Source: a virus (taxonomy: Duplodnaviria; Heunggongvirae; Uroviricota; Caudoviricetes). Taken from it: a stretch of DNA of 64,000 nt. The notes under the pieces were generated by a model. It searched no databases, was not told where the DNA came from, and was given only the letters and a program-made list of their open reading frames with translations. Below, one piece after another: positions 5,143 through 31,829 of this stretch. Positions within the stretch are counted from its first letter, which is position 1; each line of letters starts with the position of its first letter. The stretch is from the IMG/VR virus record IMGVR_UViG_3300029841_000009, positions 4,544 through 68,543 of that record; one strand, written 5' to 3'. Made by a program: the position numbers and the translations under genes.

Positions 5143-5487
5143 TTACACGCCCAGTTCTTTACGCTTATCTGCGATCTTCTCGCGTAGCGTTTCGGCTTTG
5201 GCGTTATGGTGTGGCTTCTCGTTAAAGAGCAATTCGTACTCTTCACGGAGCTTATCCAGTTCACCATCATCTGACACATCGTTGATGATTTTGGTGCTGG
5301 TTGCTGCCATTGACACCTTTCCTGCAACTTTTGCTTTTGCCTGTCTGGCTGCATCGTTAACAGGTTCCAGTGCGCTACCAGGCTCACCTTCGTATTCGAT
5401 TTCTGCCCCCTCCGGCCACAGAGTGTTATGGATATGAGAGAGGCGCAGAACGCGGTATCTTGGTTTCTCACCTGACATCGATATCAC
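5143..5487 (-). CDS. Hypothetical protein in virion module
   Basis: 114-aa ORF between capsid-associated genes and tubular A; charged C-terminus. Confidence 0.35.
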   Translation of the reverse strand: MISMSGEKPRYRVLRLSHIHNTLWPEGAEIEYEGEPGSALEPVNDAARQAKAKVAGKVSMAATSTKIINDVSDDGELDKLREEYELLFNEKPHHNAKAETLREKIADKRKELGV

Positions 5488-5488
5488 C

Positions 5489-5926: not shown

Positions 5927-5977
5927 CTTCTTTCTCCATTAGTGGGTCTGTTACGACCCACAGGTTAATAACAGGCG

Positions 5978-6970: not shown

Positions 6971-6978
6971 TTCCTCTC

Positions 6979-7680
6979 TTATTTGCCATAGAGCACTTCG
7001 GCCGCACTACGCTGGCCTTCATTACCACCGGTGACCATGCCATCTTCAGACATCGCCTTTCCGATTTTCACGAACGTTTTGACCAGATCAGGGTGATTAC
7101 CCAGCCCGGTGGTGTTCAGATATTCTTTGAGTTCAGGTGTCCCGAACTGGTCAAGCGCACGCTGTGCGGCGCTAAGGTTAGAAATCAACTTGTCGCCACC
7201 GATTTCTTTGTCGGCTTTTACATCCGCTGCCCACTGCTCGGTTGTTTTCTGCCAGGCTTCTGCCTGGCGCTGCTGAACACCTGCCAGAATCTTCGGATAA
7301 GCATCAACCAGCTTTTGCGCTTGCTCGTTGGTCAGGTTTAGTTCTCGCGCCACCGGCTCGAATTCCTTCAACGCTTCTGTATCCAGCTCTACGCCTTCGG
7401 CAGCCTGAAACTCGTACTTTTCAGGCGCACCCTCTGGTTTATCGCCGTCCTTTTTTTCATCCTGCTTATCGTTTTCAGGCTTTTTGTCATCAGCAGGTTT
7501 ATCGCCATCAGCAACAGGTTGTGGCTTATCACCTTCCTGTTGTGATGGATCACCAACTGGAGCAGGGTTATCACCTGCAGGCGCTGACGGTTCTGACGCA
7601 GCCGGAGCTGCTCCACCATCGACTGGTTGCTCATTGCAAAGACGGCGATACAGCAAACGCTCAAATAAATTCATGATCAC
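6979..7680 (-). CDS. Scaffolding protein
   Basis: 233 aa, highly acidic with a Pro/Ala/Asp/Lys-rich low-complexity N-terminus and helical C-terminus; lies between portal and capsid. Confidence 0.6.
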   Translation of the reverse strand: MIMNLFERLLYRRLCNEQPVDGGAAPAASEPSAPAGDNPAPVGDPSQQEGDKPQPVADGDKPADDKKPENDKQDEKKDGDKPEGAPEKYEFQAAEGVELDTEALKEFEPVARELNLTNEQAQKLVDAYPKILAGVQQRQAEAWQKTTEQWAADVKADKEIGGDKLISNLSAAQRALDQFGTPELKEYLNTTGLGNHPDLVKTFVKIGKAMSEDGMVTGGNEGQRSAAEVLYGK

Positions 7681-7973
7681 TCCTGTTCACTGGCCTCTTT
7701 GGCCATCTTCAAATACTGTTCAGGGCAATGCGCCATAACGCGCTGAAACAGTTCCAGCGCCAGATTGCGTTGCCCCTCATTAAATGCCATTGCCATAGCG
7801 TCCATCGGTGAGATAGCGGAAAACACACGGCCTTTCTCCAGCACCGACCAGACAACGCGACGCCCCTGTTCACTGCTCATGACAAAGCGAATGTCATCAA
7901 TTTCACGCTGTGCCATGTCACGTTGCTTACGGGCGTTTTCTTCTTTCAGTTGATCATCTTCGTAATCTGTCAT
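7677..7973 (-). CDS. Hypothetical small protein
   Basis: 98-aa ORF between portal and scaffold, overlapping both. Confidence 0.35.
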   Translation of the reverse strand: MTDYEDDQLKEENARKQRDMAQREIDDIRFVMSSEQGRRVVWSVLEKGRVFSAISPMDAMAMAFNEGQRNLALELFQRVMAHCPEQYLKMAKEASEQE

Positions 7974-9649: not shown

Positions 9650-9663
9650 TTCAATGACTCCGG

Positions 9664-9870
9664 TTACTGACCAAGCAGCGTTTTACCGCTGGTATTAGCG
9701 GTTGATGTGTCGCCCTGAGAACCGGTAAGCAGCGTAGAACTACGACCAGCAGCAGCGCGACGGCGACGAGTTTCTTCGTCGCGGGCATCAACAACGGCGG
9801 CATCCTGCTCCTGTGGTGCTGCCTGAACTTCTGGTGTTGCAGGCACTGATGGTGAGCTACCCATGCACAT
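9664..9870 (-). CDS. Hypothetical small low-complexity protein
   Basis: 68-aa ORF ending 15 nt before the portal start; Ala/Thr/Gln-rich; coding status uncertain. Confidence 0.25.
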   Translation of the reverse strand: MCMGSSPSVPATPEVQAAPQEQDAAVVDARDEETRRRRAAAGRSSTLLTGSQGDTSTANTSGKTLLGQ

Positions 9871-10297
9871 ATCAATGACTCCGTACGCAATTAAATTATT
9901 ACCAATTTAACCACATATGATTTATTTATCGTAGATAGTTGACATTTAACGCACAAATTATTACCTTTCAGGTAACCAAAGAATTCATTCCGGTTACTAA
10001 CCTGACTGGCTTGTCGTTAAATTGAACAGGTGGAGTGAGCTTTTATTTTGAGCAGTACGGCGTATGGCACATGCGCCGATAGCGGTCTGGATACGTTTAA
10101 GGGGCACCCTCCCTGGCTGTGGCAAACGAACCAGGTAGCCGGAATGTGCAAGTCGAGCGGTTTTATTCCGCGCACGGGGATTCACCATCCCGGCGATTCG
10201 GTGTGACGCCTCGGAAGAGACGAGGGTACAACGATGAGAGCATTTATGGAGCCGCGACAAAGTGTGGCGCCTTAACAGGCTAAGTGCTCTCAGCGTT

Positions 10298-10374
10298 GTG
10301 GCATTAGCTCAGTCGGACAGAGCAACCGCCTTCTAAGCGGTTGGTCGCAGGTTCGAATCCTGCATGCCACGCCA
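10298..10374 (+). tRNA. tRNA-Arg (anticodon UCU)
   Basis: Cloverleaf read by hand: acceptor GTGGCAT/ATGCCAC, D-arm GCTC..GAGC, anticodon stem ACCGC/GCGGT with loop CTTCTAA, T-arm GCAGG-TTCGAAT-CCTGC, discriminator G, CCA. Confidence 0.8.
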
Positions 10375-10537
10375 GAATCACGCCTAAGGACCGTGATGCC
10401 AGAAGTTCCAGGTGCTTGGCGGTGATGGTTTCCCTTGAAGGACTATCACCACCCTTTTTACAGCAGGACGCCATTGCGATGACTTCATGCTGTAAACCAG
10501 TACAGCCACGGAAGGCATAACTCATTGCTTCCAGTTC

Positions 10538-10561
10538 GCCCGATTCGCCGGGCATTTTTTT
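10538..10561 (+). terminator. Rho-independent terminator downstream of the tRNA
   Basis: GCCCG-attcgc-CGGGC hairpin followed by ATTTTTTT. Confidence 0.5.
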
Positions 10562-10572
10562 AAGGTGAGATT

Positions 10573-10944
10573 ATGAACGACCAGCAAATCGAAAAAGAAA
10601 TCGTTGAGAAAGGCAAAACGGCACCGCGCGTTACGCCAGACCATATCGAAGGCATTATTGCTCAGGAGGCATATTTCACAGCAGAAGATGGTGCCTTTGG
10701 CAAAGCCATAAAAGAGAAACATACTGGCGGAGAGGTAAACTACCAGCCGCACGAATCACTTTCTCTGCTGACGTTCTGCGTCCTGGTGCTGCGCAACGGC
10801 TTCACCGTCACCGGAGAGAGCGCCTGTGCAAGCCCGGAAAACTTTGATGCGGAAATTGGTCGGAAGATTGCCCGGCAGAATGCTGTAAACAAAATCTGGA
10901 TGCTCGAAGGTTACTTGCTGAAGCAGAAGCTAAGCGAGCAATAA
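10573..10944 (+). CDS. Hypothetical moron protein (opposite orientation to the structural operon)
   Basis: 123-aa ORF with strong SD (AAGGTGAG) 4 nt upstream of the ATG; sits with the tRNA between TerL and portal on the opposite strand. Confidence 0.5.
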   Translation: MNDQQIEKEIVEKGKTAPRVTPDHIEGIIAQEAYFTAEDGAFGKAIKEKHTGGEVNYQPHESLSLLTFCVLVLRNGFTVTGESACASPENFDAEIGRKIARQNAVNKIWMLEGYLLKQKLSEQ

Positions 10945-11034
10945 CGCCGTGACATGTCACAATCAGCCAGCCTATGAGCTGGCTTTGTTTTATCCTCACC
11001 AGAGGATATCAGCAGCATTATCCCATCCAGCGGA

Positions 11035-12510
11035 TTAAGCATAGGGATCGTAATCTGTGATGGCTTTGCCTTGCTGGTTCTGCTGCCCGGGAATTCGCAG
11101 ACGCTTCGACACAGGGAACGCAAACGTCAGCAGTAGCGCATCGCCTTTACCAGGAGAACGCCCAAGTCGCTCTTTGATATCTTCCTTCGGTTCGATAACG
11201 ATTTTACCGTCCACGCGAACTTTGTACTCTGCCGTCGACAGGTCGTCCGCTGTTTCCTGGTCATCCAGCATGCCGCCGAGCCTCAGCCATGTCTTGCATG
11301 AGTTGAACATCTCCCCACGCTTGTTGAGCATCTGCGGGTCAGTAGACGCGCCACCGAACGGAACAAGTTGCCATGTACGACCCCAGCCGTCACCGATTGA
11401 CTTCAAACCGGTTCCGTAACCGAAGTCGATGAACACCGCGTCAGCCTGATACTGGTCTTCAAAGTCAGCGATACGCTTCGCCATAATCAGATCGTCGGTA
11501 GTCTTGTTGCCAGTCCACAGCACCTTACTGTGTAGCCCCTGCCGCAGGTATATCACCGCGTCATCAACGCCTGAATATGCCGGGTCAACACCGATTATCA
11601 CCGGAGCATGTGCAACCTGCGCAGCGGTTACCACCCGTTTCATTGCCTCGTCAGTAAGACCGGTAGGGATAAACTGCAATTCAGATGCATCAGGGAATAT
11701 GCCACGCACACGGATTTTAACGAAGTCGCTATCTTCCCCGTAGTCATCAACCCATTTCTGCAACTGCTGTTTGTTGGTGCCTTCCACCGTCCTGCTGTCA
11801 ATCTGCGCAGTTTTCCAGCGGTGTTTGTATTTGCGGAAACATTCACGGAAACGCCCGGTGTTACGTGTAGGGTTTCCGAAAGCCACCCAGATAATCTCAG
11901 TGTCTTCGTCCGTTAGCGCACCCTCGGCAACTTCCCACACCAGATCCGCAATGTTCGACGCTTCATCAAATACCACAATGATGCGTTTACGCTCGTTGTG
12001 TAGTCCGGCGAATGCCTCAGTGTTGTGCTCAGACCAGGGGATTGCGTCAGCTCGCCACCGCTTGTCGTGCCCAGGGTCATTGCTGTACATCGCGGTAGCG
12101 GTACAGGTAAACCAGTCTTTCGTGATAGCAAGGTTTGACCACTTGATAATTTCCGGCCAGGTCTTCGTTCGTAGCTGGTTGTCGGTGTTGGCGGTCACCA
12201 CGACCTTACAATCCTCGCAAGTGGACATGCCCCAGTTGATCAGCATTGAGATGAATGCGGATTTACCAATACCGTGACCAGAAGCACGTGCCAGCATAAG
12301 CGGCTGATATCGCGTCTCTGGATTCTGCAGGTGATCACGTATCTCTCGGAACGCATCAGCCTGCCACTGACGTGGGCCGGTGGCATGTGCCAGTTCAGTC
12401 CCCTCTTCCCCCCATGGGAACGCATAGAGGGCATAGCCAAGCGGATCGTGAGTGAACCCTGCAATATCCTCGATTAACTGCTCTTCAGGAGATAACGCTG
12501 TATCTGTCAC
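11035..12510 (-). CDS. Terminase large subunit
   Basis: 491 aa; Walker-A-like GHGIGKS near the N-terminus; directly downstream of TerS. Confidence 0.8.
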   Translation of the reverse strand: MTDTALSPEEQLIEDIAGFTHDPLGYALYAFPWGEEGTELAHATGPRQWQADAFREIRDHLQNPETRYQPLMLARASGHGIGKSAFISMLINWGMSTCEDCKVVVTANTDNQLRTKTWPEIIKWSNLAITKDWFTCTATAMYSNDPGHDKRWRADAIPWSEHNTEAFAGLHNERKRIIVVFDEASNIADLVWEVAEGALTDEDTEIIWVAFGNPTRNTGRFRECFRKYKHRWKTAQIDSRTVEGTNKQQLQKWVDDYGEDSDFVKIRVRGIFPDASELQFIPTGLTDEAMKRVVTAAQVAHAPVIIGVDPAYSGVDDAVIYLRQGLHSKVLWTGNKTTDDLIMAKRIADFEDQYQADAVFIDFGYGTGLKSIGDGWGRTWQLVPFGGASTDPQMLNKRGEMFNSCKTWLRLGGMLDDQETADDLSTAEYKVRVDGKIVIEPKEDIKERLGRSPGKGDALLLTFAFPVSKRLRIPGQQNQQGKAITDYDPYA

Positions 12511-13184
12511 TGATTGCCATCCTGACGTTCTTTCAGTCTCTTCCTGGCTGCCGCTATGCGATCAGCAATTGTCACATTCACATTAACATCCAGGCGTTCT
12601 TTGAATGCGTTGACGTCGACGTGCTTACCAATCAGTTCGAGGTTCTTCACCTTGTCAGGCCATTTAATTTTTTTGAGGATGCCAACCAGCTCTTTCTCGT
12701 CTCCACGGCCTTCGAACATGTCGGCCAGTTCGAAACCTGTCAGGTACTGCCGCCAGACCTTAGGCCATTCCGAGACCGGCTTGATGCTCATATCGTCGTT
12801 GAGAATGTCAATCACGTCCATCTGGTCGATCTCCACCAGGCGCATGAGAACGTAATCAGCACTGACGCGCATTCGTTTGTTGCGCTCCTCCATCAACTCG
12901 GCAATCCGTTTCTGAATGCGTTCATCGCGCATCATGACACTGGCTTTAACTGCCGCTGTATTTGGGGAGAATCCTGCATTAATCGCAGCCTGAGTCTGGT
13001 TTTCAGGCGTTTTGATGTATGACTGGCAATAAGCCTCCTGCATTGCTGTTAGTGGCTTAAATTGCGTTGATTTGCGTTTATAGGTTTTAGGTTCAGCAGG
13101 CATCATAACCACCGTGGTAATAGTTACCGTTGTGGTAATAGTACCATGCAAAATAAAGCCGCCATAGTTGGCGGCAGTATTCAA
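12507..13184 (-). CDS. Terminase small subunit (true start probably near 13106)
   Basis: Helical DNA-binding N-domain pattern (QEAYCQSYIKTPENQTQAAINAGFSPNTAAVKAS) of small terminases; the poly-Thr N-terminal extension in the ORF is probably untranslated. Confidence 0.65.
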   Translation of the reverse strand: MNTAANYGGFILHGTITTTVTITTVVMMPAEPKTYKRKSTQFKPLTAMQEAYCQSYIKTPENQTQAAINAGFSPNTAAVKASVMMRDERIQKRIAELMEERNKRMRVSADYVLMRLVEIDQMDVIDILNDDMSIKPVSEWPKVWRQYLTGFELADMFEGRGDEKELVGILKKIKWPDKVKNLELIGKHVDVNAFKERLDVNVNVTIADRIAAARKRLKERQDGNQ

Positions 13185-13224
13185 AACCCATCAAATTCAT
13201 CATGCATAACCCACTCGTGACATG

Positions 13225-13578
13225 TCACAATATTAATTTCGTTTCATGCCAGCCTTTAGTCACCCAGCATTGCGAGTCACCATTACACGGGCATGAATTC
13301 ACAGGAACTCTCTCGCCGCACTTACCGCAACGTTTTCTGCTGATCGATTTTATACGCCCGTGCACGCGCGCATCATCCTGGCGGATCAGTAACGCTATAT
13401 ACTCACCAAATTCGTAAGGCGCACGCCCGGGGCGACGTGTGGCACAGTTACGCTCCAGCATTTCAATTTCCTGAGCATCAAGCACAATCTCCAGCTTACG
13501 CACACCAGATGCAGCTTGTCTGGCTCTCTGAGCGGCTTTGCGCTCTGCTGCTGCCTTAGCCATTACCATATCCACCAA
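13225..13578 (-). CDS. Hypothetical protein with Cys-rich C-terminus
   Basis: 117-aa ORF upstream of TerS; CGKCG...CPC motif suggests zinc binding. Confidence 0.35.
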   Translation of the reverse strand: MVDMVMAKAAAERKAAQRARQAASGVRKLEIVLDAQEIEMLERNCATRRPGRAPYEFGEYIALLIRQDDARVHGRIKSISRKRCGKCGERVPVNSCPCNGDSQCWVTKGWHETKLIL

Positions 13579-13648
13579 ACTTCACCAGACATGATTCTCG
13601 CAATCACTATCATCACCAAAGTGATAATCACAACTTTAACTGGCGGCA

Positions 13649-14026
13649 TCATTCACCATCCTGCTCCGGCGGTTCTGGCAGCGGCATCCAGTGGGTTACC
13701 TCCTTGAGATACAGGTCTTCGCCACCACCGTCATCCCAAGTGGGCTTGCCATCATTAAACCAGTCGCCATATACGCCGACCTGAGTGTTGGGGATGCTTG
13801 GTGGGTAGTTGTTTTTAAAGTCAGCAGCTAACACATAGCATTGTCGCTCTCCCATTTCTGGCATTCGTTCACTACAGCTTATCCAACTCTCCGGAGTTAC
13901 CGGAGAGTTGCCAGCCTCATACGCCACACGCATCCAGTGCATAAGCGTTTCAGTGCTCACACAGCCGCAATCAACATCAATTTTGCCGTGCTGCTGTTCC
14001 AGCCATTGCTCAAGCGTAGTGCTCAT
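13649..14026 (-). CDS. DUF551-like protein
   Basis: C-terminal THWMPLPEPPE motif typical of lambdoid DUF551 proteins. Confidence 0.55.
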   Translation of the reverse strand: MSTTLEQWLEQQHGKIDVDCGCVSTETLMHWMRVAYEAGNSPVTPESWISCSERMPEMGERQCYVLAADFKNNYPPSIPNTQVGVYGDWFNDGKPTWDDGGGEDLYLKEVTHWMPLPEPPEQDGE

Positions 14027-14256
14027 TTTTCATCCCCCCGATGATGCCATCTGCATCGCATCTCATAACACCCCCACTCAACACGAAAACCACATAGCCT
14101 GTGCAGATCCACCCACTTCTGCGCCATCGCTGGCGACGTGTAAATCACAGTGAATGCGTTATCTTCGTTGTCGATTTGCGTAAACGTCACTTTGTACAAC
14201 AACCCACCGTCGACACATGCTGTGTTCAACGATTTATTGCTAATACCCTCAATCAT
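14023..14256 (-). CDS. Hypothetical protein
   Basis: 77-aa ORF coupled to neighbours. Confidence 0.35.
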   Translation of the reverse strand: MIEGISNKSLNTACVDGGLLYKVTFTQIDNEDNAFTVIYTSPAMAQKWVDLHRLCGFRVEWGCYEMRCRWHHRGDEK

Positions 14257-14900
14257 TCGTACTCACCCCCCGCTGTTTTGAATTTGATCTCCGCTGCCTG
14301 CAATGCGTGTTCGACGTCGAAGCGGTCCAGCCATCCACCAAAGTGGTGCGGCATCATTACCACCCGCTCACCGCTATTTATTGGGTGGCCCATACGGGGT
14401 TCGTAGCCGTCCGGTAACTCGACTTCCCGCGCTTCCAGTTCTGCTATGCGCTTCTCTGATGCTTCAAGTAACGCCTGCTTATCGCGTAGCGCTTCTTCCA
14501 GTTCAGCAACATGGCACTCACTATCAATAAGGTTGTTCTCTGCGGCTTCCAGCTCAACACGCAGCTTCCCTACCGTTAGCGCAATATCCTCGTTCTCTTG
14601 GTCGCGGCGTTTGATGTATTGCTGGTTTCTTTCCCGTTCATCCAACAATGCCAGCACGGTAACTGGATTGGCTGCGGCGATGAATTCAGCATTGGCCTGC
14701 TGTTCCATTTGGAAATCTTCATCGAAACCGCTTTCAGGATGCGCTCCTTCAATTCTGCAAATGGGAAGATATCCAACAACTTCACGATGAATTAGCGCAT
14801 CACCAGCATCAAATCTCTCCTCTCCATATTCTAGCGACCACACACCACACGTTGCTTTTTCTGCCTTAGCACGCAGTGCCTGGTAATTAATTTCGCTCAC
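14253..14900 (-). CDS. Ead/Ea22-like protein
   Basis: N-terminus MSEINYQALRAKAEKA and coiled-coil core LLDERERNQQYIKRRDQENEDIALTVGKLRVELEAAE, as in lambdoid Ead/Ea22 proteins. Confidence 0.55.
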   Translation of the reverse strand: MSEINYQALRAKAEKATCGVWSLEYGEERFDAGDALIHREVVGYLPICRIEGAHPESGFDEDFQMEQQANAEFIAAANPVTVLALLDERERNQQYIKRRDQENEDIALTVGKLRVELEAAENNLIDSECHVAELEEALRDKQALLEASEKRIAELEAREVELPDGYEPRMGHPINSGERVVMMPHHFGGWLDRFDVEHALQAAEIKFKTAGGEYE

Positions 14901-15137
14901 TGGCTGCCTCCTGCTTTTCTGCCTTCAACACCATGCGAGAACCATCATCCAGCTCCCACACTATCTCACCACCTTCAGCCATGACCAGTTGCCACACCAA
15001 TTGAGCAGCCTCATTGGTAACATCACGACCTGGATCATTGCCAACGCGCATACGTCCACCTTCAACATCGCGCATTTTTGCCAGCATGATAGTTTTTGAT
15101 AGCGGTGAAAAACCAAGCTGTAGTCGTGCTGAATTAC

Positions 15138-15764
15138 TCACTGGTTGCCTCCTTTGCGAAGCTGTTCCGCCCATTCTTCAAGGGATTTCTCCGCATATTC
15201 ACCGGACAGGCCATCAATCGGATGCGCTTCATTAACCAACTCTTCTTTCGCTGACAAAATCATGCGTGTAACGTCGAAAACTTCACGCAAAGACTTATTG
15301 ATAAATCCGTGATTGAACGCAGCAGCAAGACGGCTGGCGGTATAGTTAATCCCCTCGTTGCGTGCTTCCGCACGAATTTCAGCCAGAAAAGCATCGGTAG
15401 CTGGAGTTTCGCTGTGGTGTAGGGCATCATTGATAATCATTGCAGCAACACCAGCCTGCCCTGCATCCGTGACCGACACATGCTCAAGAGTTACGGCCAT
15501 TGCGTGTTTCAGTCCGTCGTTCTCCACCACCAGCGCAGCGAGATTAGTCTCATACTCCGCAATTCGGCACATAGCATCGATATTTGTGTCCTCCAGCCGC
15601 TTAATTTCATCCAGTAGCGCCAGCACAACCTGCGGTGTGACCTTCATACGAAACGCGAGCAATTTTTGCGGCGTTGCCACGACTTTTATTGCTTCTGCTG
15701 CCTCACGCAGTGCCTGGTAATTAATTTCGCTCACTGGTTGCCTCCTGAATACGCTTAAACTCAA
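15138..15764 (-). CDS. Ead/Ea22-like protein (paralog)
   Basis: Contains SEINYQALREAAEA; its 3' ~250 bp is near-identical to 63750-64000. Confidence 0.5.
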   Translation of the reverse strand: MSLSVFRRQPVSEINYQALREAAEAIKVVATPQKLLAFRMKVTPQVVLALLDEIKRLEDTNIDAMCRIAEYETNLAALVVENDGLKHAMAVTLEHVSVTDAGQAGVAAMIINDALHHSETPATDAFLAEIRAEARNEGINYTASRLAAAFNHGFINKSLREVFDVTRMILSAKEELVNEAHPIDGLSGEYAEKSLEEWAEQLRKGGNQ

Positions 15765-19497: not shown

Positions 19498-19730
19498 CAG
19501 CGCCCCTTACCATTGATAAAGAGGTTGAACTCGTTGATTAACTGGACATACATGCTTCTGGCCGCGTAGTTCTTTGCCAGCTCTTTACGGGATGAGATCC
19601 CGCAAAACTCACGCAGAATCACAGAGGCCTCAGAACTGTTTGAAACGTTCTTCCCTGTTTTACTGGTCAGAAAGCGCCAGAATTGGGGATTCTGGCAATG
19701 CATCGCAGCACCGCGAACATAACTACTCAT
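19497..19730 (-). CDS. Hypothetical protein
   Basis: 77-aa ORF, coupled. Confidence 0.35.
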   Translation of the reverse strand: MSSYVRGAAMHCQNPQFWRFLTSKTGKNVSNSSEASVILREFCGISSRKELAKNYAARSMYVQLINEFNLFINGKGR

Positions 19731-20242
19731 TGATGGCCCCCGTCATTTCTGGTGCTTTTCACCGTGCGGCTTCTTAAAAACCTGCCATCACGAACAACAG
19801 ACACTTCTCGTTTACCCAACCTCATTTCACGGCGGTAACATTCAGAAAATGCCTCGTCCGGCATCATATAAATGCGACGCTTCGCCTCCGTATCCAGAAG
19901 GGAACGGCTTGGGGTTACATATAAAAACGACTCATCAATAGGGACAAAACCACGAGCAAGAATTGCTGGCAGAATGCCAGGAAGAACGCAGAAAACAGCT
20001 CCACGATGCAGCAACATCTGGTACTCCATGACCTCCGTTATCCCCGTGACTACTGTTACGGTGTCACGTCTGTTACGGCTGGCAACCAGTCGCTGCACAC
20101 GTCCAATTTTCTGATCTACAGATAGATGTTTGCTATCGTTATCAATATGATCGATAGCAAATCCTTTAATCGTTTGATCAAGGTAGTGCACCACCTTCGA
20201 TTGAATCTGGTGATTATCACCAAAGAAGGCCAGAATCATCAT
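19727..20242 (-). CDS. Hypothetical protein
   Basis: 171-aa ORF. Confidence 0.35.
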   Translation of the reverse strand: MMILAFFGDNHQIQSKVVHYLDQTIKGFAIDHIDNDSKHLSVDQKIGRVQRLVASRNRRDTVTVVTGITEVMEYQMLLHRGAVFCVLPGILPAILARGFVPIDESFLYVTPSRSLLDTEAKRRIYMMPDEAFSECYRREMRLGKREVSVVRDGRFLRSRTVKSTRNDGGHQ

Positions 20243-20733
20243 TCCTCAAGCCTCCCAAGTGCTGAACGCCGGGCGTTGCTAATCTCCTTATGAATCAGCT
20301 CGATATCGCTGGAATCTTTATTCTTAAGCTCCAGCACGGTAATCGCATCACGAACCTCTGAAACGGTTACGTGTGAGTGTTTCCAGCGAGCAATGAATCG
20401 CGGACCGCGTAGATTGCAACGCTCCGCAGGCATCCCCAACTCAGAGAAAACCGCTTTCAGCCTTGATAAGCAGTTAACAGGGAGATTCCCTTTGATCTTG
20501 TTCTGCCGAACCGATGTGCCATCGCTACGCTGGCGCTGACGTTCGGCAAAATCTGCCGCCCATTGCTGGACGTTAATCCGGCCTTCCGAATACGCCACCA
20601 GCAGCGTCAGGTTATCCGCACGAGGGAATCTCTCGAAGCGATACCAGGCACCAATCAGTGATGACGTAAAGCCAAACTTTCTGGCAACACCAATTTGGCC
20701 TCCATTTTCGTCAACCCACTCCTGAAAGGTCAT
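20239..20733 (-). CDS. Cro-like HTH regulator with C-terminal extension
   Basis: N-terminal HTH (QIGVARKFGFTSSLIGAWYR); divergent from the CI-like repressor across an operator-containing intergenic region; GGAG SD 8 nt upstream. Confidence 0.45.
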   Translation of the reverse strand: MTFQEWVDENGGQIGVARKFGFTSSLIGAWYRFERFPRADNLTLLVAYSEGRINVQQWAADFAERQRQRSDGTSVRQNKIKGNLPVNCLSRLKAVFSELGMPAERCNLRGPRFIARWKHSHVTVSEVRDAITVLELKNKDSSDIELIHKEISNARRSALGRLEE

Positions 20734-20752
20734 TTAACGAACTCCAGTTAAA

Positions 20753-20870
20753 ACCACGATATGTGGTATTAAAACCACATATCGTGAGTTTTTCAATGGG
20801 CAAAACAAAAAATAACCTTCTATTTGTGGTCCACCTCTCGTCTTACCATGTGAAAACCACTAAATGTGGT
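20753..20870. promoter_or_regulatory. Operator cluster between cro-like and CI-like genes
   Basis: Three 15-bp palindromes: ACCAC-GATAT-GTGGT (20753-20767), ACCAC-ATATC-GTGAG (20774-20788), ACCAC-TAAAT-GTGGT (20856-20870). Confidence 0.55.
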
Positions 20871-20907
20871 AATGTATAAATAACCCACCATTCACGATTG
20901 ATGAGAC

Positions 20908-21564
20908 ATGAAAAGCAACGACGAGAACATCAAGAAAGAAATAGGTCTGCGCATTCAGACTCTACGGAAACAATCCGGCATGACTGCCGGAGATCTCCAG
21001 CAAGTCACTGGAATAGGCTTAAGCACCTTGCAGAACTATGAGGCCGGATTAAGACAACCATCTATACCTGCCATCAAGAAAATCGCGCACGCCCTGAAAG
21101 CATCAGCGCCTTATATCGCGTGCTTAACAGATAACCCGTTCCCACCCCAGAATACTAACGCTCCTGTTATTCCTGGGCTTGTAGCTATAAAAAATGACAT
21201 AGCATCGCACGCCGGAGAAAAGCCAGTGCTGGCGATAGAACAGGAGATTCTACGAAGCAAGAACATCAACCCATCGTCTCTGTCAGTTCTCCAGAGCAAC
21301 GATGAGTTAATGTCACCAACAATATCCCCTGGCTCCCAAGTCCTGATTGATACAGACGATACAGAGATTCATGAGGGGATCTATGCCCTTGAAGACAGAA
21401 ATGGCCTGGTTGTTTTGAGGCACTGTAGAGTCATACCGGGTGACAATGCTGTTATGCTGTCAACCGAAAGGGATGCTGAAATGAACACTAAGCATCTGAA
21501 TAACGAGGAATTTAAGCGTTATAAAGTTCTGGGCCGCGTAGTTAGTGTTGTCAACTGGTTATGA
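20908..21564 (+). CDS. CI-like repressor (HTH-XRE N-domain + S24 LexA-like peptidase C-domain)
   Basis: N-terminal HTH (IGLRIQTLRKQSGMTAGDLQQVTGIGLSTLQNYEAG); C-terminal S24-like segment (ELMSPTISPGSQVLIDTDD). Confidence 0.8.
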   Translation: MKSNDENIKKEIGLRIQTLRKQSGMTAGDLQQVTGIGLSTLQNYEAGLRQPSIPAIKKIAHALKASAPYIACLTDNPFPPQNTNAPVIPGLVAIKNDIASHAGEKPVLAIEQEILRSKNINPSSLSVLQSNDELMSPTISPGSQVLIDTDDTEIHEGIYALEDRNGLVVLRHCRVIPGDNAVMLSTERDAEMNTKHLNNEEFKRYKVLGRVVSVVNWL

Positions 21565-21570
21565 TACACA

Positions 21571-21594
21571 GCACGGCGAAAGCCGTGCATTTCT
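21571..21594 (+). terminator. Terminator-like hairpin after the repressor gene
   Basis: GCACGGC-gaaa-GCCGTGC followed by ATTTCT. Confidence 0.4.
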
Positions 21595-21606
21595 ACGCTC
21601 AAAAAA

Positions 21607-21621
21607 ACCACATTTTGTGGT
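21607..21621. promoter_or_regulatory. Operator site (ACCAC-ATTTT-GTGGT)
   Basis: Perfect palindrome of the same family, upstream of the 21657 gene. Confidence 0.5.
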
Positions 21622-21656
21622 TTTGACAACATGTGAAAGTATAAAAGAGGCTACGC

Positions 21657-22031
21657 ATGGAATTACATACAGCCAATAAAAACGAAACTCTGATCACTGC
21701 TGGAATCGAAATCCAAGCGTTGAACATAGCGATTGAGTGTATGTTATGCCAAATCATTGATAATGAGAAAGATATCGACTGGATATCATCTACCCTTCAT
21801 CTTGCTTACGAGCAAAAAGCCTGCCTCAAAACAGCCTTACAATACGATGTGCCTTCTGTATCAAAGCTGTGCCAGTCATTGATGGCATATAACAGAGCTA
21901 TCATTTCTGTATGCCTCATGATTCTCGATGAGAATACCCCTCTTAGCGACCGCTCAGAAGCAGCTCTAACCCTCTCACGTAAACAGCGACAGCTAGCAAA
22001 TCAACTGATATCAACGATAGCTGACCTCTGA
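21657..22031 (+). CDS. Hypothetical protein downstream of the repressor
   Basis: 124-aa ORF preceded by an operator and followed by a hairpin. Confidence 0.4.
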   Translation: MELHTANKNETLITAGIEIQALNIAIECMLCQIIDNEKDIDWISSTLHLAYEQKACLKTALQYDVPSVSKLCQSLMAYNRAIISVCLMILDENTPLSDRSEAALTLSRKQRQLANQLISTIADL

Positions 22032-22036
22032 CTGCA

Positions 22037-22054
22037 AGCGGGCTAACGCCCGCT
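22037..22054 (+). terminator. Terminator-like hairpin
   Basis: AGCGGGC-taac-GCCCGCT. Confidence 0.4.
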
Positions 22055-22055
22055 T

Positions 22056-22160
22056 ATATGATTATAGATTTATATAATTATATAAAACGCTTTTCATCCG
22101 CCAAAAAGTTGGTTATGCTTACCTCGTTCTATAAATATAGATTTATAGAATTATATAACC
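22056..22160. repeat. AT-rich iterons flanking the parA promoter (centromere/operator candidate)
   Basis: TATGATTATAGATTTATATAATTATATAA (22056-22088) and CTATAAATATAGATTTATAGAATTATATAA (22129-22160). Confidence 0.55.
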
Positions 22161-22166
22161 AAACAC

Positions 22167-22835
22167 ATGGAGTCTCGACAAATGACTATCTCTGTAGGTA
22201 TTTTCAACGGAAAAGGCGGCGTAACCAAATCAACAATTGCCCGTGCTTTAGCAGTTGCTTATGCAAAGGCTGGCTGGAATGTATGCCTGATCGATATGGA
22301 TGTGCTTAACGGAACGGTAACGCGTTGGGTACAACGCAGAATGGCCAACAATATCGAACCAGCAATCGCGGCGCAGCCGTGCGGCACACCATCACAAGTC
22401 CAGAAAATCATCGAATCAGAAGTATACGACCTGGTTATCGTCGATGGCGGTGCCTACGCATCTGAATCAGTACCGAAGCTCTCTGAATTTCTGGATATGG
22501 TTATTTTGCCAACCAGATTCTCTACCGATGACCTGGAAACCACCGTTAACACAGCTCACGGCATCGTTAAAAAGGGTGTACCAATCAAGAAAATTTGCAT
22601 GGTGTTTTCCGGCGCGGCTGAAAACGAAGCTGACTATATTGAAGCCCAAGAGTACCTGGCTAATACGCCATACTTTGTTGTCGATAAGTACATTCCCCAC
22701 AAGCCAGCTCTGAGCAAAGCTCAGGATAAGGGCTTAAGCCTTATTGAGTGCTCATACGTTGCGCCACGCAAAAAGGCAGACGATGTTATCCAGGGGATTA
22801 TCAATCAGCTTGAGGCTCTGACTACTGCCGCGTAA
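22167..22835 (+). CDS. parA: ParA/Soj-family partition ATPase (start possibly 22182)
   Basis: Deviant Walker A GIFNGKGGVTKST; about 220 aa, typical small ParA; GGAG SD 9 nt upstream of the second ATG. Confidence 0.8.
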   Translation: MESRQMTISVGIFNGKGGVTKSTIARALAVAYAKAGWNVCLIDMDVLNGTVTRWVQRRMANNIEPAIAAQPCGTPSQVQKIIESEVYDLVIVDGGAYASESVPKLSEFLDMVILPTRFSTDDLETTVNTAHGIVKKGVPIKKICMVFSGAAENEADYIEAQEYLANTPYFVVDKYIPHKPALSKAQDKGLSLIECSYVAPRKKADDVIQGIINQLEALTTAA

Positions 22836-22872
22836 TATATAATTATAGTTTTATAGATTTATATAAAAGGGG
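22835..22872. repeat. AT-rich iteron between parA and the RHH gene
   Basis: TAATATATAATTATAGTTTTATAGATTTATATAAAAGG. Confidence 0.5.
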
Positions 22873-22878
22873 ATACAC

Positions 22879-23127
22879 ATGGCCGCACCATCAAAACCAC
22901 CGAAAAAGAACAGCAAAGGCGTACCGCCATCAATCGAACAACCGCAGGTTTTCGACCCGACTGAAACGCCGACCAGAACCAAATCAGGTGGGGCACAAAT
23001 GGCGTTTAACGTCGACCCTGAATTTAAACGCGAGTACAAAACGTTCGCCAGCTCAATGGATATGTCATTGAAAGAAGTGCTGACAAAATCTTTTGAGTTA
23101 CTCAAGGCTCAATACAACCAGAAGTAA
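22879..23127 (+). CDS. ParG-like ribbon-helix-helix partition / centromere-binding protein
   Basis: 82 aa with disordered basic N-terminus and C-terminal RHH-like MAFNVDPEFKREYKTFASSMDMSLKEVLTKSFELLKAQ; directly downstream of parA. Confidence 0.55.
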   Translation: MAAPSKPPKKNSKGVPPSIEQPQVFDPTETPTRTKSGGAQMAFNVDPEFKREYKTFASSMDMSLKEVLTKSFELLKAQYNQK

Positions 23128-23156
23128 GAGAAGGTGACGGCCTCCAGCGCCAACTG

Positions 23157-23339
23157 TTGGCCGTCGCGACACAACAAGGGGAATTTGTTATGTCCGAGCA
23201 ACAATATACACGGTTACTGAAAACTCGTCTAACCGACCTCAAACGGCTGCAAGCTGGTTGCTTATTTGCCCTGCTATCTACCAGGCCAGAATGGGTACGT
23301 GAAGCAGTTCTGAAAGGTTTAATGCGCTCCAGCGTTTAA
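23157..23339 (+). CDS. Hypothetical small protein
   Basis: 60-aa ORF after the RHH gene. Confidence 0.3.
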   Translation: MAVATQQGEFVMSEQQYTRLLKTRLTDLKRLQAGCLFALLSTRPEWVREAVLKGLMRSSV

Positions 23340-23349
23340 ATTCAACCAT

Positions 23350-23371
23350 AAAAAAGGCCCCCGAAGGGGCC
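23350..23371 (-). terminator. Rho-independent terminator (minus-strand orientation)
   Basis: GGCCCC-cgaa-GGGGCC hairpin with T5 on the minus strand. Confidence 0.5.
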
Positions 23372-23377
23372 TAATCG

Positions 23378-23500
23378 CTACTTGCTGCTAATGTTTATCG
23401 TCACATTCAGAGCGTTATCAGTAATCTTCCAACCCTCCCCATGTGGCGTAAACAAAGCTCCAGTAACAACGATAAAAATACACATACAGTATTTTTTCAT
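23378..23500 (-). CDS. Small hydrophobic protein (40 aa, MKKYCMCIFIVVTGALFTPHGEGW...)
   Basis: Internal start of the 23378-23560 ORF with AAGGG SD 7 nt upstream; hydrophobic N-terminus; terminator downstream. Confidence 0.3.
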   Translation of the reverse strand: MKKYCMCIFIVVTGALFTPHGEGWKITDNALNVTINISSK

Positions 23501-23731
23501 TGTATGGCCCTTACAGGCCGTTTCACGGCATCCCCACCGACGAAAACAACGCGAGAGCAAGCACGGCTGCTTGTGCTTGCATGTACGGCAACGGAGAATC
23601 CTCCCCTAAAGTCGGTGCCCGGGTGCGAATCGGCGGGAAGGTCCACAGGTATTTTACGATTATTTTAAGATTAGTTATAGGAAAGAAATTAAACGAAAAA
23701 ACTCGTTTATTTTCACAAAATCAGTAACCTA

Positions 23732-23746
23732 CCCACAATCTGTGAG
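23732..23746. promoter_or_regulatory. Operator-like site (CCCAC-AATCT-GTGAG)
   Basis: Same half-site family as the cro/CI operators. Confidence 0.35.
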
Positions 23747-23943
23747 TTTGCAGGCACAACAAGAACCACAATTTTATGAAGCATAATAGTGGACTATTAT
23801 TACCTTTTGGGTAAAATTAACTTGCTGCTTGTGCTTGCGTGGTTGTTTATACAACAACGTAATGCTGAAAGGACCGCGAATCCGATCAGCACGAAAGAAC
23901 CGTCCTCAATAGGGCGGTTTTTTTGTTTCTGCCTACCAATAAA

Positions 23944-23958
23944 CCCACACTATGTGGT
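23944..23958. promoter_or_regulatory. Operator-like site (CCCAC-ACTAT-GTGGT) upstream of the antirepressor operon
   Basis: Palindrome of the operator family, next to a TTGACA -35-like hexamer at 23985. Confidence 0.45.
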
Positions 23959-24014
23959 TGTCTCTGTTAAAATCCCGCCGTATTGACATAAATGCGCCAT
24001 TGGTGGACACTTTC

Positions 24015-24095
24015 CGAGCCGTAGCAAAATCTACGGTCGGGATTGGAACCCCGATAATCATCATGGCGCATACCGCGTTAGCGGTTTTTTTATGC
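24015..24095 (+). ncRNA. Candidate c4-like antisense/regulatory RNA in the antirepressor leader
   Basis: Hairpins CCGTAG-caaaat-CTACGG and TCGGG-AUUGGAA-CCCGA, then terminator ACCGC-gtta-GCGGT plus T7; loop UUGGAAC is complementary to GUUCCAA at 24175-24181. Confidence 0.3.
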
Positions 24096-24256
24096 GTAAA
24101 GCACTGCTACACCCAAATTATGGTGGGGCGTGCGGGGGAGTCGTAAGACTCGCCGGATTCCATGGTGACCGGTAGTTCCAACCCTGTACGTCTCACCACC
24201 CAATGATTGGAACCAGACGGTGGTGAGTATCCTTAACCTTTAAGGGAACTATCACC

Positions 24257-24448
24257 ATGACAAACCTACCCCATGACTATTACGTCAACCTCGTAAAGAT
24301 CCTTCTCAAGAAAGCCTCATACGCCGATAAATTCCGCCTGGCTGAAATCATCGAGCGCGAAGCTATGCGCATCGCCAGCAACGATAACGCTGTTTCTGTC
24401 GCAAAAATCTCCCTCGTAACCAAAGTAGTTATGGGAGGTGCAAAATGA
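24257..24448 (+). CDS. Small protein translationally coupled to the antirepressor (Icd-like position)
   Basis: 63-aa ORF; its stop overlaps the ant ATG (ATGA). Confidence 0.4.
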   Translation: MTNLPHDYYVNLVKILLKKASYADKFRLAEIIEREAMRIASNDNAVSVAKISLVTKVVMGGAK

Positions 24449-25626
24449 AAACGCTTCCGACCGTTAACACCCTACAGCCTATCCTGCATAACCAGCTCCC
24501 CGTTATCACTACTGAACTACTGGCGCAATTGTATGGAACCGAGCGCCAACGTCTGACAAACAATTTCAATAGAAACAAGGAACGTTTTATAGAAGGTAAA
24601 CACTTTTTTAGGATAGAAGGTAAAGAGTTACGAGAGTTGAAGAACAAAAACTCTTTAAGAGTTCCTGTGAGAGTAGTTAACGAACCATCTTTAAGAGGGT
24701 TACAAATTCCCCCGAAAGTTCGCTCCCTCATCCTCTGGACAGAACGCGGGGCTGCACGTCACGCCAAAATGCTTGAAACTAACCAAGCGTGGGATGTGTT
24801 CGAACGGCTGGAAGACAGCTACTTCAACCAGAACGCACAAACGGCCGCGACCGTAACCGTCTCACCAAACAATGCTCGTGAGGTTGTCGATACGCTCAAC
24901 GCCAAACCAATGTATTACGTTAAGGTGTGCAACAACGAGCCACTCACAACCTCAGCCGATGTTGCCCAAGCATTCAGCACCACAAACAATTCCATCGTTA
25001 TGGCCATCGATGCGTTACGCATTCCTCGCACGGCTGCGGCGCGTCACTTCTTTAAAGAACAACGACCGCTGGAAGGAAGCGACCGCGAAATAACAATCTA
25101 TCGCATGACAAAAGACGGATTTACCTTGCTCATGGAAAGTATCGACGGTCCAGGCGTGAAGGATATCAAGCTGGCCTACATTGAAGCCTTTAACGCTATC
25201 AGCAGCGTGTTAAAGGCAGAATACGAGCGAATGCTATACAACCGACTGTATCAGGAAACAAAGATTATCCGAACGGCAACAGAACATCATCGGCTATTAA
25301 CGGAACCAAACTACCGCAAGACACTAATCAAAGAGTTTGACAAGGCGACGGAGAAAACTAAAGCGGCACTAAATCTACCAACAATGACTAAAGATGATGT
25401 GATATCAGCCTTACTTCTTGATCTGCTCAGAAACGCCAGAGCACTTATCAGTTTTGACGAAAACCTGAATCCTCAGCTCAAGCTACTACCACCGACAGGC
25501 AAAGTAGTCGACCAAGCAGATCACAACAGCATACTCAGCGTACTGGATGCAAACCTGCCAGCCAGGACACTACAGGAGCTGATAAAAATATCTGCGGATA
25601 AACTGGCCGCAGGTGCAAAACCATAA
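24445..25626 (+). CDS. Antirepressor (ORF6N-like N-domain + Rha-like domain)
   Basis: N-terminal LYGTERQRLTNNFNRNKERFIEGKHFFRIEGKELRELKN; central ITIYRMTKDGFTLLMESIDGPGVKDIKLAYIEAFN (Rha-type). Confidence 0.75.
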   Translation: MKTLPTVNTLQPILHNQLPVITTELLAQLYGTERQRLTNNFNRNKERFIEGKHFFRIEGKELRELKNKNSLRVPVRVVNEPSLRGLQIPPKVRSLILWTERGAARHAKMLETNQAWDVFERLEDSYFNQNAQTAATVTVSPNNAREVVDTLNAKPMYYVKVCNNEPLTTSADVAQAFSTTNNSIVMAIDALRIPRTAAARHFFKEQRPLEGSDREITIYRMTKDGFTLLMESIDGPGVKDIKLAYIEAFNAISSVLKAEYERMLYNRLYQETKIIRTATEHHRLLTEPNYRKTLIKEFDKATEKTKAALNLPTMTKDDVISALLLDLLRNARALISFDENLNPQLKLLPPTGKVVDQADHNSILSVLDANLPARTLQELIKISADKLAAGAKP

Positions 25627-30485: not shown

Positions 30486-31334
30486 TTAATGTTGGAGTGA
30501 TTTCCAGGTCTTTCTTAACCTGTTATAACGCTGCTCAACGAGGGATCGTAAATATGCAAGGTCAGCACCAGGATACATGCCATCAGCAAATTCCTGACTA
30601 ACCTCTCTGGTGATTTGATGACGAAGTTCGGCCTCTCCCTTTTCCCGAACAAGACGCGCAGCTCTCTCCGCTGCTTTCTGTTTTGCCTTTATCTCTCTGG
30701 CCGTCTTCCTCTGACGCCATACATTCTCCATCTGCTCCTGAATAACAATACGCTTATAATCAGCCTCCGTTATCGCTTTTTTAAGCCGTTCGCTATTCTT
30801 CGCATTGAAGTAATTAAGTTTCTGGCTAACCGCACGTCTCCATGCTTGTTCAGTAATACCAACGGTTTCCAGCAGTTGATCACGAATCTCTATTTTCGCT
30901 GGCCAATACTGTTTATTCACCCGATCCCAGCGACGTTCATAATCAATAAAACCTAACGCTTTCAGTTGCGACAACGCCCTTGTACAGCGCGTTATAGACT
31001 TGTTCCCAGCTTCGGATACGGTAGACAGGCCGCAAAAATCAGCCAACGCCTCAGCACTAGCCAGAACCCGCTTAGAAATGATGTTTACATGGTGCAAAAT
31101 CGCAGCGATCACAGCATTAATCGCCCGACGACGATGCTCGTTTATCCGGCGCTTCCGCTCTGACGGTTGATTAACGTAGAACGCAACCTCACACGTAAGA
31201 TCACGCCCATTAATGCGCTGTAAAGCATCAGATAACACCAGCGGCAGCTTGTGCGTATGGTGCTTTGGAGGCTGGAACTCCGGCGACAAATTACAAACGT
31301 AAGCTGAACGTAGAGACGGCATTGGTCTATCCAT
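30486..31334 (-). CDS. repA: IncFII-type replication initiator RepA (ORF extends to 31466 but likely starts at MDRPMPSL)
   Basis: Segment KSITRCTRALSQLKALGFIDYE and basic C-terminus resemble IncFII RepA1; the upstream in-frame extension overlaps an antisense promoter/terminator. Confidence 0.75.
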   Translation of the reverse strand: MDRPMPSLRSAYVCNLSPEFQPPKHHTHKLPLVLSDALQRINGRDLTCEVAFYVNQPSERKRRINEHRRRAINAVIAAILHHVNIISKRVLASAEALADFCGLSTVSEAGNKSITRCTRALSQLKALGFIDYERRWDRVNKQYWPAKIEIRDQLLETVGITEQAWRRAVSQKLNYFNAKNSERLKKAITEADYKRIVIQEQMENVWRQRKTAREIKAKQKAAERAARLVREKGEAELRHQITREVSQEFADGMYPGADLAYLRSLVEQRYNRLRKTWKSLQH

Positions 31335-31378
31335 ATGTTCGCTCTTGCGTCCACGGAAAACCAACGTATAATGGGAGT

Positions 31379-31460
31379 TGTCGAGGCGCCCATGGATTGT
31401 TGTTGTTGGTTTTCCGTGGATGTCGCAAGAAGCCCGCAGATTTATCTGCGGGCTTTTTGT
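31379..31460 (+). ncRNA. CopA-like antisense RNA candidate opposite the repA leader
   Basis: Plus-strand promoter TTGCGT-16 bp-TATAAT (31345-31372), stem-loop, and terminator GCCCGCAG-attta-TCTGCGGGC-TTTTT (31430-31458). Confidence 0.35.
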
Positions 31461-31502
31461 TTCCATATCTGGTCACTTTCCAACCAGACACCCACAATCA
31501 TA

Positions 31503-31517
31503 ACCACGTTACGTGGT
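31503..31517. promoter_or_regulatory. Operator site (ACCAC-GTTAC-GTGGT) in the repA promoter region
   Basis: Perfect palindrome of the same family as the cro/CI operators. Confidence 0.45.
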
Positions 31518-31829
31518 TTTAAGAGAACTCTACCACAACACTTTCGGTCATGCACGAAGTCTCTCACTGATCGAACGATAATCCACCAGTAAAAGGATCT
31601 AAATTGGATCTCGTTTTGCGAGCATCATACTACTGGCCTAACTCCAGTCAATGATTCCCAGCCAGAAACCTGCGGTAAACTCATCGTTCAGCAATATGCT
31701 GTCCGGCTTCAAAGATAAGGTGACATCATCCCTTAACAGCGCGGCCAGCTCCGTTAAAGGGTTGTTTTGACTTAATGCAAAACCGCTAATAAACATATTG
31801 GCGGTTTTGTTCCTTAAATCATCTTGCCT

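Follow-up and report, generated by a model that had tools for sequence, protein, structure and literature searches.

The stretch of 64,000 nucleotides analysed here (the window; positions 4,544 to 68,543 of the IMG/VR virus record IMGVR_UViG_3300029841_000009, Caudoviricetes) carries a family of 15-bp palindromes, and we consider it rather probable (about 0.65) that these are operators of the form AAACCAC-N5-GTGGTTT, recognised by dimers of the phage repressor CI and dispersed over the regulon of a phage-plasmid. To judge from their sequence, six sites (those starting at 20753, 20774, 20856, 21607, 23944 and 31503) look like real operators. As the sites are conserved at homologous positions in relatives, they are best read as the targets of a single repressor that acts on dispersed promoters, and one protein would thus probably tie plasmid copy number to the switch between dormant and lytic growth. 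Motif enrichment, site positions, conservation, the contrast between half-sites and spacers, and the domain and RNA family matches were computed; that CI binds the sites, where the promoters lie, and how copy number and induction are affected is what we infer.

The original prediction listed seven 15-bp sites, and all seven are present in the sequence where it had put them; none is assigned to a strand. In the immunity region, O1 (20753-20767, ACCACGATATGTGGT) is a perfect palindrome, ACCAC-GATAT-GTGGT, just downstream of the leftward -10 element and at about -155 from the cI start in five lineages, O2 (20774-20788, ACCACATATCGTGAG) reads ACCAC-ATATC-GTGAG and occupies the 17-bp spacer of the leftward promoter, and O3 (20856-20870, ACCACTAAATGTGGT), again a perfect palindrome (ACCAC-TAAAT-GTGGT), lies 38 bp upstream of the cI ATG. 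The post-cI operator (21607-21621, ACCACATTTTGTGGT), with the perfect palindrome ACCAC-ATTTT-GTGGT, is situated between the cI terminator and the genes orf124, parA and parB. The predicted operator of the antirepressor (ant) operon (23944-23958, CCCACACTATGTGGT) reads CCCAC-ACTAT-GTGGT and has 1 mismatch, while the predicted repA operator (31503-31517, ACCACGTTACGTGGT) is perfect and reads ACCAC-GTAAC-GTGGT on the minus strand. The seventh site is a weak one (23732-23746, CCCACAATCTGTGAG, CCCAC-AATCT-GTGAG). A weak candidate for a fourth immunity operator, at 20816-20830 (CCTTCTATTTGTGGT, CCTTC-TATTT-GTGGT), has a good right half only; this half, GTGGT, is conserved across lineages and becomes GTAGT in lineages with ACTAC-type half-sites.

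The motif is strongly over-represented. The core CCAC-N5-GTGG occurs 8 times in the window against 0.44 expected, a number reached in none of 100 shuffles, and the more degenerate pattern of the original prediction gives 16 strand-matches against 0.56 expected. When each of the 1024 pentamers was paired with its reverse complement across 5 bp, ACCAC ranked first with 6 pairs and the runner-up had 3; for ACCAC pairs the spacing of 5 alone was enriched (6 pairs, against 0-1 at the other spacings in the range 0-12). Six perfect copies of ACCAC-N5-GTGGT are thus found in 64 kb, compared with 0.066 expected from the pentamer counts, and four of them (20753, 20856, 21607 and 31503) are intergenic. 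The remaining two (2392 and 39060) fall within coding sequence; the earlier list had missed them, and also a one-mismatch match in coding DNA at 33836. The copy at 2392 sits within an unrelated phage module, and that at 39060 reads ACAAC in the two closest relatives, which are about 98-99% identical over that stretch; both are probably chance matches. The site at 23732, which had been proposed as an operator upstream of ant, is not credible as such. It differs from ACCAC-N5-GTGGT at 3 of 10 positions, a level of match that is expected many times by chance, and it lies inside a cassette resembling ryfA/TimR, between the ryfA promoter and the promoter of a TimR-like small RNA (sRNA), away from the ant promoter and in a cassette that many relatives do not have.

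A further operator-like pair was seen at 56876 and 56897 (ACCACATTAAGATGT, AACACAGAAAGTGGT; 56876-56911), 21 bp apart as are O1 and O2. It lies in the first 17 codons of a ParB/Srx-like gene that heads the block of packaging and late genes. Its inner halves are kept in Salmonella, for which constraint on the coding sequence at the protein level may account.

Relatives were drawn from PLSDB, IMG/VR and NCBI assemblies, and were grouped as elements from Salmonella, Yokenella, Citrobacter and K. aerogenes (CI 61-67% identical), Serratia-like elements (about 33%) and the L017 group (L017, L018, L020, L021 and L022; about 30%). In the first group, sites with at most one mismatch stand at -155, -135, -53 and +700 relative to cI and, where sequence is available, also at the repA promoter and, Salmonella excepted, at the ant promoter. 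The core has exactly 5 matches in 19 kb of the Citrobacter element, all at homologous operator loci, and 5 of 6 matches are at such loci in the 44.5 kb of the Salmonella element. The corresponding stretch of the ATCC 25922 plasmid (NZ_CP009073.1) contains 5 matches with at most one mismatch against 0.28 expected, and the five strong sites are all represented in it. Across lineages, 4 of 60 half-site columns are variable compared with 24 of 30 spacer columns (Fisher p = 2e-12), and the varied spacers indicate that the operator regions are not simply frozen. The placement of the operators relative to -10 elements is conserved as well.

In the immunity region, on the minus strand, a putative leftward early promoter, P_L (20768-20796), was read from the sequence and is not called by a simple scanner; it has the -35 element TTGAAA (20796-20791), a 17-bp spacer and the -10 element TTTAAT (20773-20768). 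The order on this strand is TTGAAA, the spacer with O2, TTTAAT, O1 and then the first leftward gene, and the succession of -35, operator in the spacer, -10 and operator is kept in all lineages, including those whose CI is about 30% identical. The centres of O1 and O2 are 21 bp apart, and together the two sites form an inverted repeat with 13-bp arms. By covering the start site and the spacer, CI on O1 and O2 would shut off this lytic promoter. O3 overlaps the likely cI promoter (-10 TATAAA, 20875-20880), from which autoregulation of cI would follow. The first gene of the leftward operon (20239-20733, minus strand) codes for 164 amino acids and had been called cro-like. Its position fits that label and no family match does: the protein has no Pfam match even at E<10 and no detectable DNA-binding domain, and matches phrog_7452, to which no function is assigned. 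It is syntenic in all relatives.

The CI-type repressor itself (20908-21564, plus strand, 218 amino acids) has an XRE-type helix-turn-helix (HTH) and a CI-like C-terminal domain. The N-terminus matches HTH_3 of Pfam (E=4.5e-11, residues 16-69), and among the PHROG families the protein matches phrog_4, 'transcriptional repressor', over its full length (E=2e-27) and phrog_6201, 'CI-like repressor', over residues 110-214. The original prediction called this protein LexA-like and proposed a test for SOS-dependent autocleavage. The C-terminal domain, however, resembles S24 peptidases marginally at most: it reaches 20.0 bits with Pfam Peptidase_S24, the cut-off being 23.3, and none of 13 CI homologues is annotated as S24. 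Sequence and profile searches of the PDB with CI matched only HTH proteins of XRE/Cro type and no S24 chain, and in an AlphaFold model of CI (12 sequences) the predicted local distance difference test score of the C-terminal domain is below 50. The Ser/Lys dyad of the protease is missing: in an alignment with LexA and lambda CI, the Ser position falls on E133 or L134 and the Lys position on R174 or L170. This absence holds in all relatives, the sole exception being one Ser in L019. In the linker, where autocleavable repressors have an Ala-Gly cleavage site, the E. coli allele has A102-G103 (HAGEK), Salmonella has AG and L016 has SG, while the Serratia-type proteins have a deletion at this point. 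LexA boxes were searched for as well; they are not enriched, and none is near the ant operon. Because the C-terminal domain has no Ser and Lys dyad, SOS autocleavage of CI appears unlikely and induction via the antirepressor more likely; by analogy with the Gifsy repressors (PMC4825925), CI is probably inactivated by the ORF6N+Rha antirepressor.

The antirepressor operon (24018-25626, plus strand) is made up of an isrK RNA (24018-24091; Rfam, 70 bits), a C4 antisense RNA (24116-24203; Rfam, 84 bits) upstream of orf63 and ant, orf63 itself (24257-24448), whose stop overlaps the ant start as ATGA, and the gene for the antirepressor (24445-25626), which has Pfam ORF6N and Phage_pRha domains and matches anti-repressor PHROGs. 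Two putative promoters, both on the plus strand, precede it. P_isrK (23983-24011; TTGACA, 17-bp spacer, GACACT) fits the 5' end of the Rfam isrK match at 24018 and is identical in Salmonella; the 23944 site lies 66 bp upstream of the isrK start and outside this promoter. Further upstream an extended -10 promoter (23965-23973, TGTTAAAAT) was read from the sequence, and relative to it the 23944 site is at about -36 to -22, where CI would add transcriptional control to the RNA-level control of Ant. In Yokenella and Citrobacter the operator reads ACCACAATGCGTGAT and the extended -10 element, at the matching place, TGGTAGATT. Three different cassettes are found upstream of the site, which keeps its place beside the ant promoter with each of them. 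Salmonella has neither the site nor the extra promoter, and the predicted control of the ant operon by CI is for this reason specific to some lineages, those of E. coli type. The proposal that the repressor directly controls its antirepressor thus has good comparative support for the E. coli-type lineages, in which the same motif is conserved at the upstream ant promoter, and not for Salmonella.

Upstream of the operon, the window contains a minus-strand homologue of ryfA, a TimP-type toxin mRNA, within 23350-23925, with the divergent TimR-like sRNA. The sRNA has a promoter at 23790-23817 and a terminator at about 23898-23925, and its 5' part is complementary to ryfA; the pair has the look of a toxin-antitoxin cassette of type I. 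In relatives this slot is taken by other cassettes, of which there are at least two. The 681-bp stretch with the ryfA cassette and the ant operator has matches in 72 of 5426 complete E. coli genomes.

The repA gene (minus strand) encodes an initiator of the IncFII_repA family (Pfam E=1.3e-43). Its annotated start at 31466, which would give 326 amino acids and lie 37 bp from the operator, uses an ATG that is not conserved in relatives, and the Salmonella RepA is 86% identical from residue 49 on, which sets the start at 31322, about 181 bp downstream of the operator. The annotated start is thus probably wrong and the true gene probably 30486-31322, with 278 amino acids. The RepA 'N-terminal extension' (31322-31466) overlaps the target of the antisense RNA described below.

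Two tandem promoters, both on the minus strand, precede the leader. P1 (31624-31651, TTGACT-16-TATGAT) is a canonical promoter that the scanner matched at 10/12, and equivalent hexamers are found in Citrobacter and Serratia. The putative P2 (31527-31535, TGGTAGAGT) is an extended -10 promoter whose element TGnTAGAGT is present in every lineage, with the A-for-G variant TGCTAAAGT in one (L020). The repA palindrome begins 9 bp after the P2 element, which places the operator centre at about +11, and it is about 100 nt downstream of the P1 start, a roadblock position. An operator-like site is found at the matching place in all lineages examined. In the L017 group it reads ACTAC-AAAAC-GTAGC, with both arms changed, and ACTAC half-sites also prevail in the immunity and post-cI operators of this group. 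In the Serratia-like elements it has one good half-site, GTGGT, and a spacer like that of their own immunity operators (CAATTTG in L019). The earlier suggestion that the repressor may control plasmid replication therefore gains good support from our comparison, as far as sequence can tell, through operator-like sites at the matching place in all lineages examined.

The leader also encodes a putative CopA-like antisense RNA (31379-31458, plus strand; promoter TTGCGT-16-TATAAT at 31345-31372; terminator stem 31432-31453) of about 80 nt, which folds into two stem-loops with a strong terminator (z = -5.2), and of which both the hairpin and the promoter are kept in relatives as far as Serratia. No match to CopA or another Rfam family was obtained in the repA leader. 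The roughly 100 bp between P1 and P2 contain no open reading frame (ORF), and a copB gene would not fit between the promoters and repA. In PLSDB this leader was found in the present phage-plasmid family only, so that no plasmid there combines it with an absence of CI. Upstream of the repA promoters there is a tail-fibre assembly gene or an invertase gene. Bound at about +11 of P2, CI would lower repA transcription, besides the action of the antisense RNA, where IncFII plasmids use CopB. A candidate -10 element, TATGAT, just after the repA operator was rejected as not conserved. Between the two promoters (31560-31615), GATC direct repeats of the form AGATCC-N6-AGATCC are kept in the Salmonella and Serratia relatives and may be a Dam/SeqA site or a site for another regulator.

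The cI gene is followed by a hairpin terminator (21571-21588, plus strand, GCACGGC-GAAA-GCCGTGC), which is present in all lineages with a better T-run in the relatives. Directly after it, at about +700 relative to cI, operator-like sites are present in all lineages, either singly or as a pair; the ACTAC-type lineages of the L017 group have two in tandem, which copy their own O1 and O2. A promoter between the 21607 site and orf124 was considered and rejected, the 36 bp to the ATG being too short. Since no workable promoter lies there, we propose that CI at this site would either anchor the far end of a DNA loop to the immunity operators, about 750 bp off across cI, or gate read-through into the partition genes. 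The maintenance genes (21657-23339, plus strand) were assigned from ParA/CbiA matches and synteny, and consist of orf124, parA (22182-22835), a parB-like gene for 82 amino acids (22879-23127) and an ORF for 49 amino acids (23190-23339, MSEQQYTRLLKTRLTDL...). The latter, directly after the parB-like gene, is kept from E. coli to Serratia and has a weak PHROG match only, with no assigned function.

Other explanations for the palindromes were considered. The main ligand of the motif might be a different phage regulator, acting alongside CI or in its place, for instance the 164-amino-acid protein as a Cro in the positional sense, and the dispersed sites would then serve to shut down repA, par and ant in lytic growth and not to restrain these genes while the element is a plasmid. 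The gene for this protein is divergently oriented to cI, shares the operator region and is found in the same place in every relative, and Cro and CI share operators in lambdoid switches. We regard this as unlikely, as the protein has no detectable DNA-binding domain, whereas the HTH and repressor-family matches of CI are clear; moreover, the Cro of PY54 binds one OR site only and not the repA sites (PMC4488713).

The repA site could alternatively be a leader element, such as a 5' RNA hairpin or a site for a host or Rep factor, whose likeness to the immunity operators is coincidental or inherited. It is indeed part of the P1 transcript and, from about +4 on, of the P2 transcript, and it can form a 5-bp stem with a 5-nt loop, of which the two-arm change to ACTAC/GTAGC keeps 4 of 5 pairs. 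In the Serratia-like lineages, however, the pairing is broken (ACCCC/GTGGT, GGCCC/GTGGT, CTCCC/GTGGT), yet one DNA half-site and an operator-like spacer persist, for which reason a DNA site is favoured over an RNA hairpin. The chance of a 10/10 match at this spot is about 1e-6 per position, and the motif is found again at the post-cI and ant promoters, so that a pure leader element also seems improbable to us. Very improbable is the view that all sites outside the immunity region are functionless chance palindromes. The original prediction had itself named this danger, and it applies to some sites, namely 23732 with its 3 mismatches, 39060, not conserved in the two closest relatives, and 2392 in a foreign module, which fit chance. 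For the family as a whole it disagrees with the excess of perfect pairs given above, and with the conservation of 21607, 23944 and 31503 at homologous positions in several genera with differing spacers; for 21607 and 31503 it is contradicted.

Several observations weigh against the proposed CI regulon and should be considered when our probability is read. The sites in the relatives were found by motif search, and conservation of the half-sites is partly built into that procedure. Apart from P1, the promoters were read by eye and not called by the scanner. The ant site is missing in Salmonella and not clear in the Serratia-like members, and the role of the post-cI site is uncertain, no convincing promoter being present downstream of it. 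As the two perfect matches within genes show, some copies do arise by chance or lack an explanation. The repA site is inside the transcribed leader of P1 transcripts, which makes a role at the RNA level possible. Finally, the recognition helix of CI, STLQNYE, is nearly invariant across the family, and with near-constant DNA specificity there is no clean switch of specificity to compare; a covariation test rests on C/T at one half-site position.

Taken together, the proposed CI operators suggest a regulatory scheme in which CI may fill the role of CopB at repA. As CI has no protease dyad, the antirepressor would be its probable inactivator, and inactivation would de-repress the lytic operon and repA together. 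Apart from the IncFII-type RepA, no initiator, helicase or primase is annotated in the phage-plasmid, and it is tempting to speculate, as a tentative and somewhat doubtful extension, that the IncFII-type replicon is the sole replicon, that CI replaces CopB and, jointly with the antisense RNA, keeps repA expression low in the plasmid state, the dose of CI feeding back on copy number, and that the antirepressor releases lytic replication in the manner of R1 runaway replication, such that one operator turns a plasmid origin into a phage origin. The site map may be used as a wiring diagram that couples plasmid copy number, partition and the lytic decision in a common family.

This family is well represented in the databases. 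One complete circular copy of the 48.6-kb E. coli phage-plasmid corresponds to about 15.1-63.7 kb of the window. Over 19500-23500 the E. coli plasmid NZ_CP069971.1 is 100% identical to the window, and the 49-kb Yersinia phages vB_YpM_39/41/44 are 98.6% identical. PLSDB contains about 60 plasmids of the family, one of them from the quality-control strain E. coli ATCC 25922; related elements are found in Salmonella, Citrobacter, Klebsiella, Yokenella and Serratia. Among the relatives there are also infectious Yersinia phages. The minus strand carries nearly all lytic and structural genes, and the plus strand cI, orf124, parA, the parB-like gene, the small ORF and the antirepressor operon. Gene annotation in the family is nearly all hypothetical, and a literature search found no paper on this phage-plasmid family. 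An identification with the 'pSLy3' phage-plasmid group was rejected, pSLy3 being a 114-kb relative of SSU5, and a search of genome contigs with ParA gave unrelated Clostridia only.

Positions 1-15150 form a capsid, portal and terminase module of an unrelated phage, and E. coli plasmids of 41 kb, NZ_CP079771.1 among them, are related to it. A repeat of 256 bp (15149-15404 and 63745-64000, 97% identical) flanks exactly one 48.6-kb phage-plasmid unit beside this module, which suggests a cointegrate or recombinant joined in the region of the ead/Ea22-like gene. The junction itself is not spanned by any complete E. coli record in RefSeq. The tRNA genes lie at 10298-10371 in the foreign module and at 59804-59876 in the phage-plasmid, the latter being annotated as tRNA-Met in a Yersinia phage relative. 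A plasmid of Serratia sp. JSRIV006 (L005) has the cI-par-ant-repA backbone together with a lambda-like siphovirus tail module, while the window has a P2-like contractile tail module. As the same backbone is paired with different tail modules, the maintenance and immunity block switches between virion types.

The individual parts of this system can be compared to known ones. In the isrK-orf45-anrP region of Gifsy-1, a short ORF is coupled to the antirepressor gene by an ATGA overlap, and the antirepressor inactivates the lysogenic repressor (PMC4825925). The present locus is similar in having an isrK RNA, an ATGA-coupled short ORF and an antirepressor. It differs by the C4 RNA between isrK and the short ORF, by the fusion of ORF6N and Rha in the antirepressor and, in the E. 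coli-type members, by an additional operator-bearing promoter upstream. With the IncFII plasmids R1 and R100 the element shares the IncFII_repA initiator, two tandem promoters upstream of the leader, and, as a putative feature, a countertranscript in the leader of about 80 nt with two stem-loops and its own strong promoter, albeit without an Rfam match to CopA. CopB represses P_repA in R1, whereas here no copB lies between the promoters and repA, and the promoter bears the predicted operator of the phage repressor instead. In this element, a phage repressor would have been added to an IncFII replicon with antisense RNA, in the place where CopB usually acts.

In the phages P1 and P7, the repressor acting at dispersed operators is C1, and immI comprises c4-icd-ant. 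In P1, one promoter of immI is C1-controlled (Op51), and the plasmid replicon (repA with iterons) is not known to be under C1 control but the lytic replicon repL is. The original prediction had likened the dispersed operators to those of this phage-plasmid, where the C1 operators scattered over the genome comprise 22 asymmetric 17-bp sites, ATTGCTCTAATAAATTT (PMC8546580). The comparison holds as to the logic, that is dispersed repressor operators and also a C4 RNA of the same Rfam family before the antirepressor. It does not extend to the sites and the protein, as the present element has about 6-7 symmetric 15-bp sites, and its CI is of XRE-HTH type and unrelated to C1.

N15 is the closest functional precedent, more so than P1. 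In PMC4488713, which cites Lobocka 1996 and Ravin 2011, the CB repressor of N15 is described as binding three OR operators (cB-cro) and, at the repA promoter, two OL operators, and as thereby setting the prophage copy number, and induction as involving an antirepressor under small-RNA control (references therein). Similarly, the element studied here has predicted operators (O1, O2 and O3) that separate cI from the divergent lytic gene, and in all lineages the predicted operator at 31503-31517 stands beside conserved elements of the repA promoters. The genome of N15 is linear and codes for a protelomerase, while the present element is circular and has no annotated protelomerase. The RepA of N15 is a large primase/helicase-type protein encoded close to the immunity region; here RepA belongs to the IncFII family and is accompanied by an antisense RNA, and the repA site is 10.6 kb from cI. 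A predicted repressor operator at the antirepressor operon is a further difference. The logic of dispersed operators is thus already known from N15 and P1, and it is the kind of replicon that differs here.

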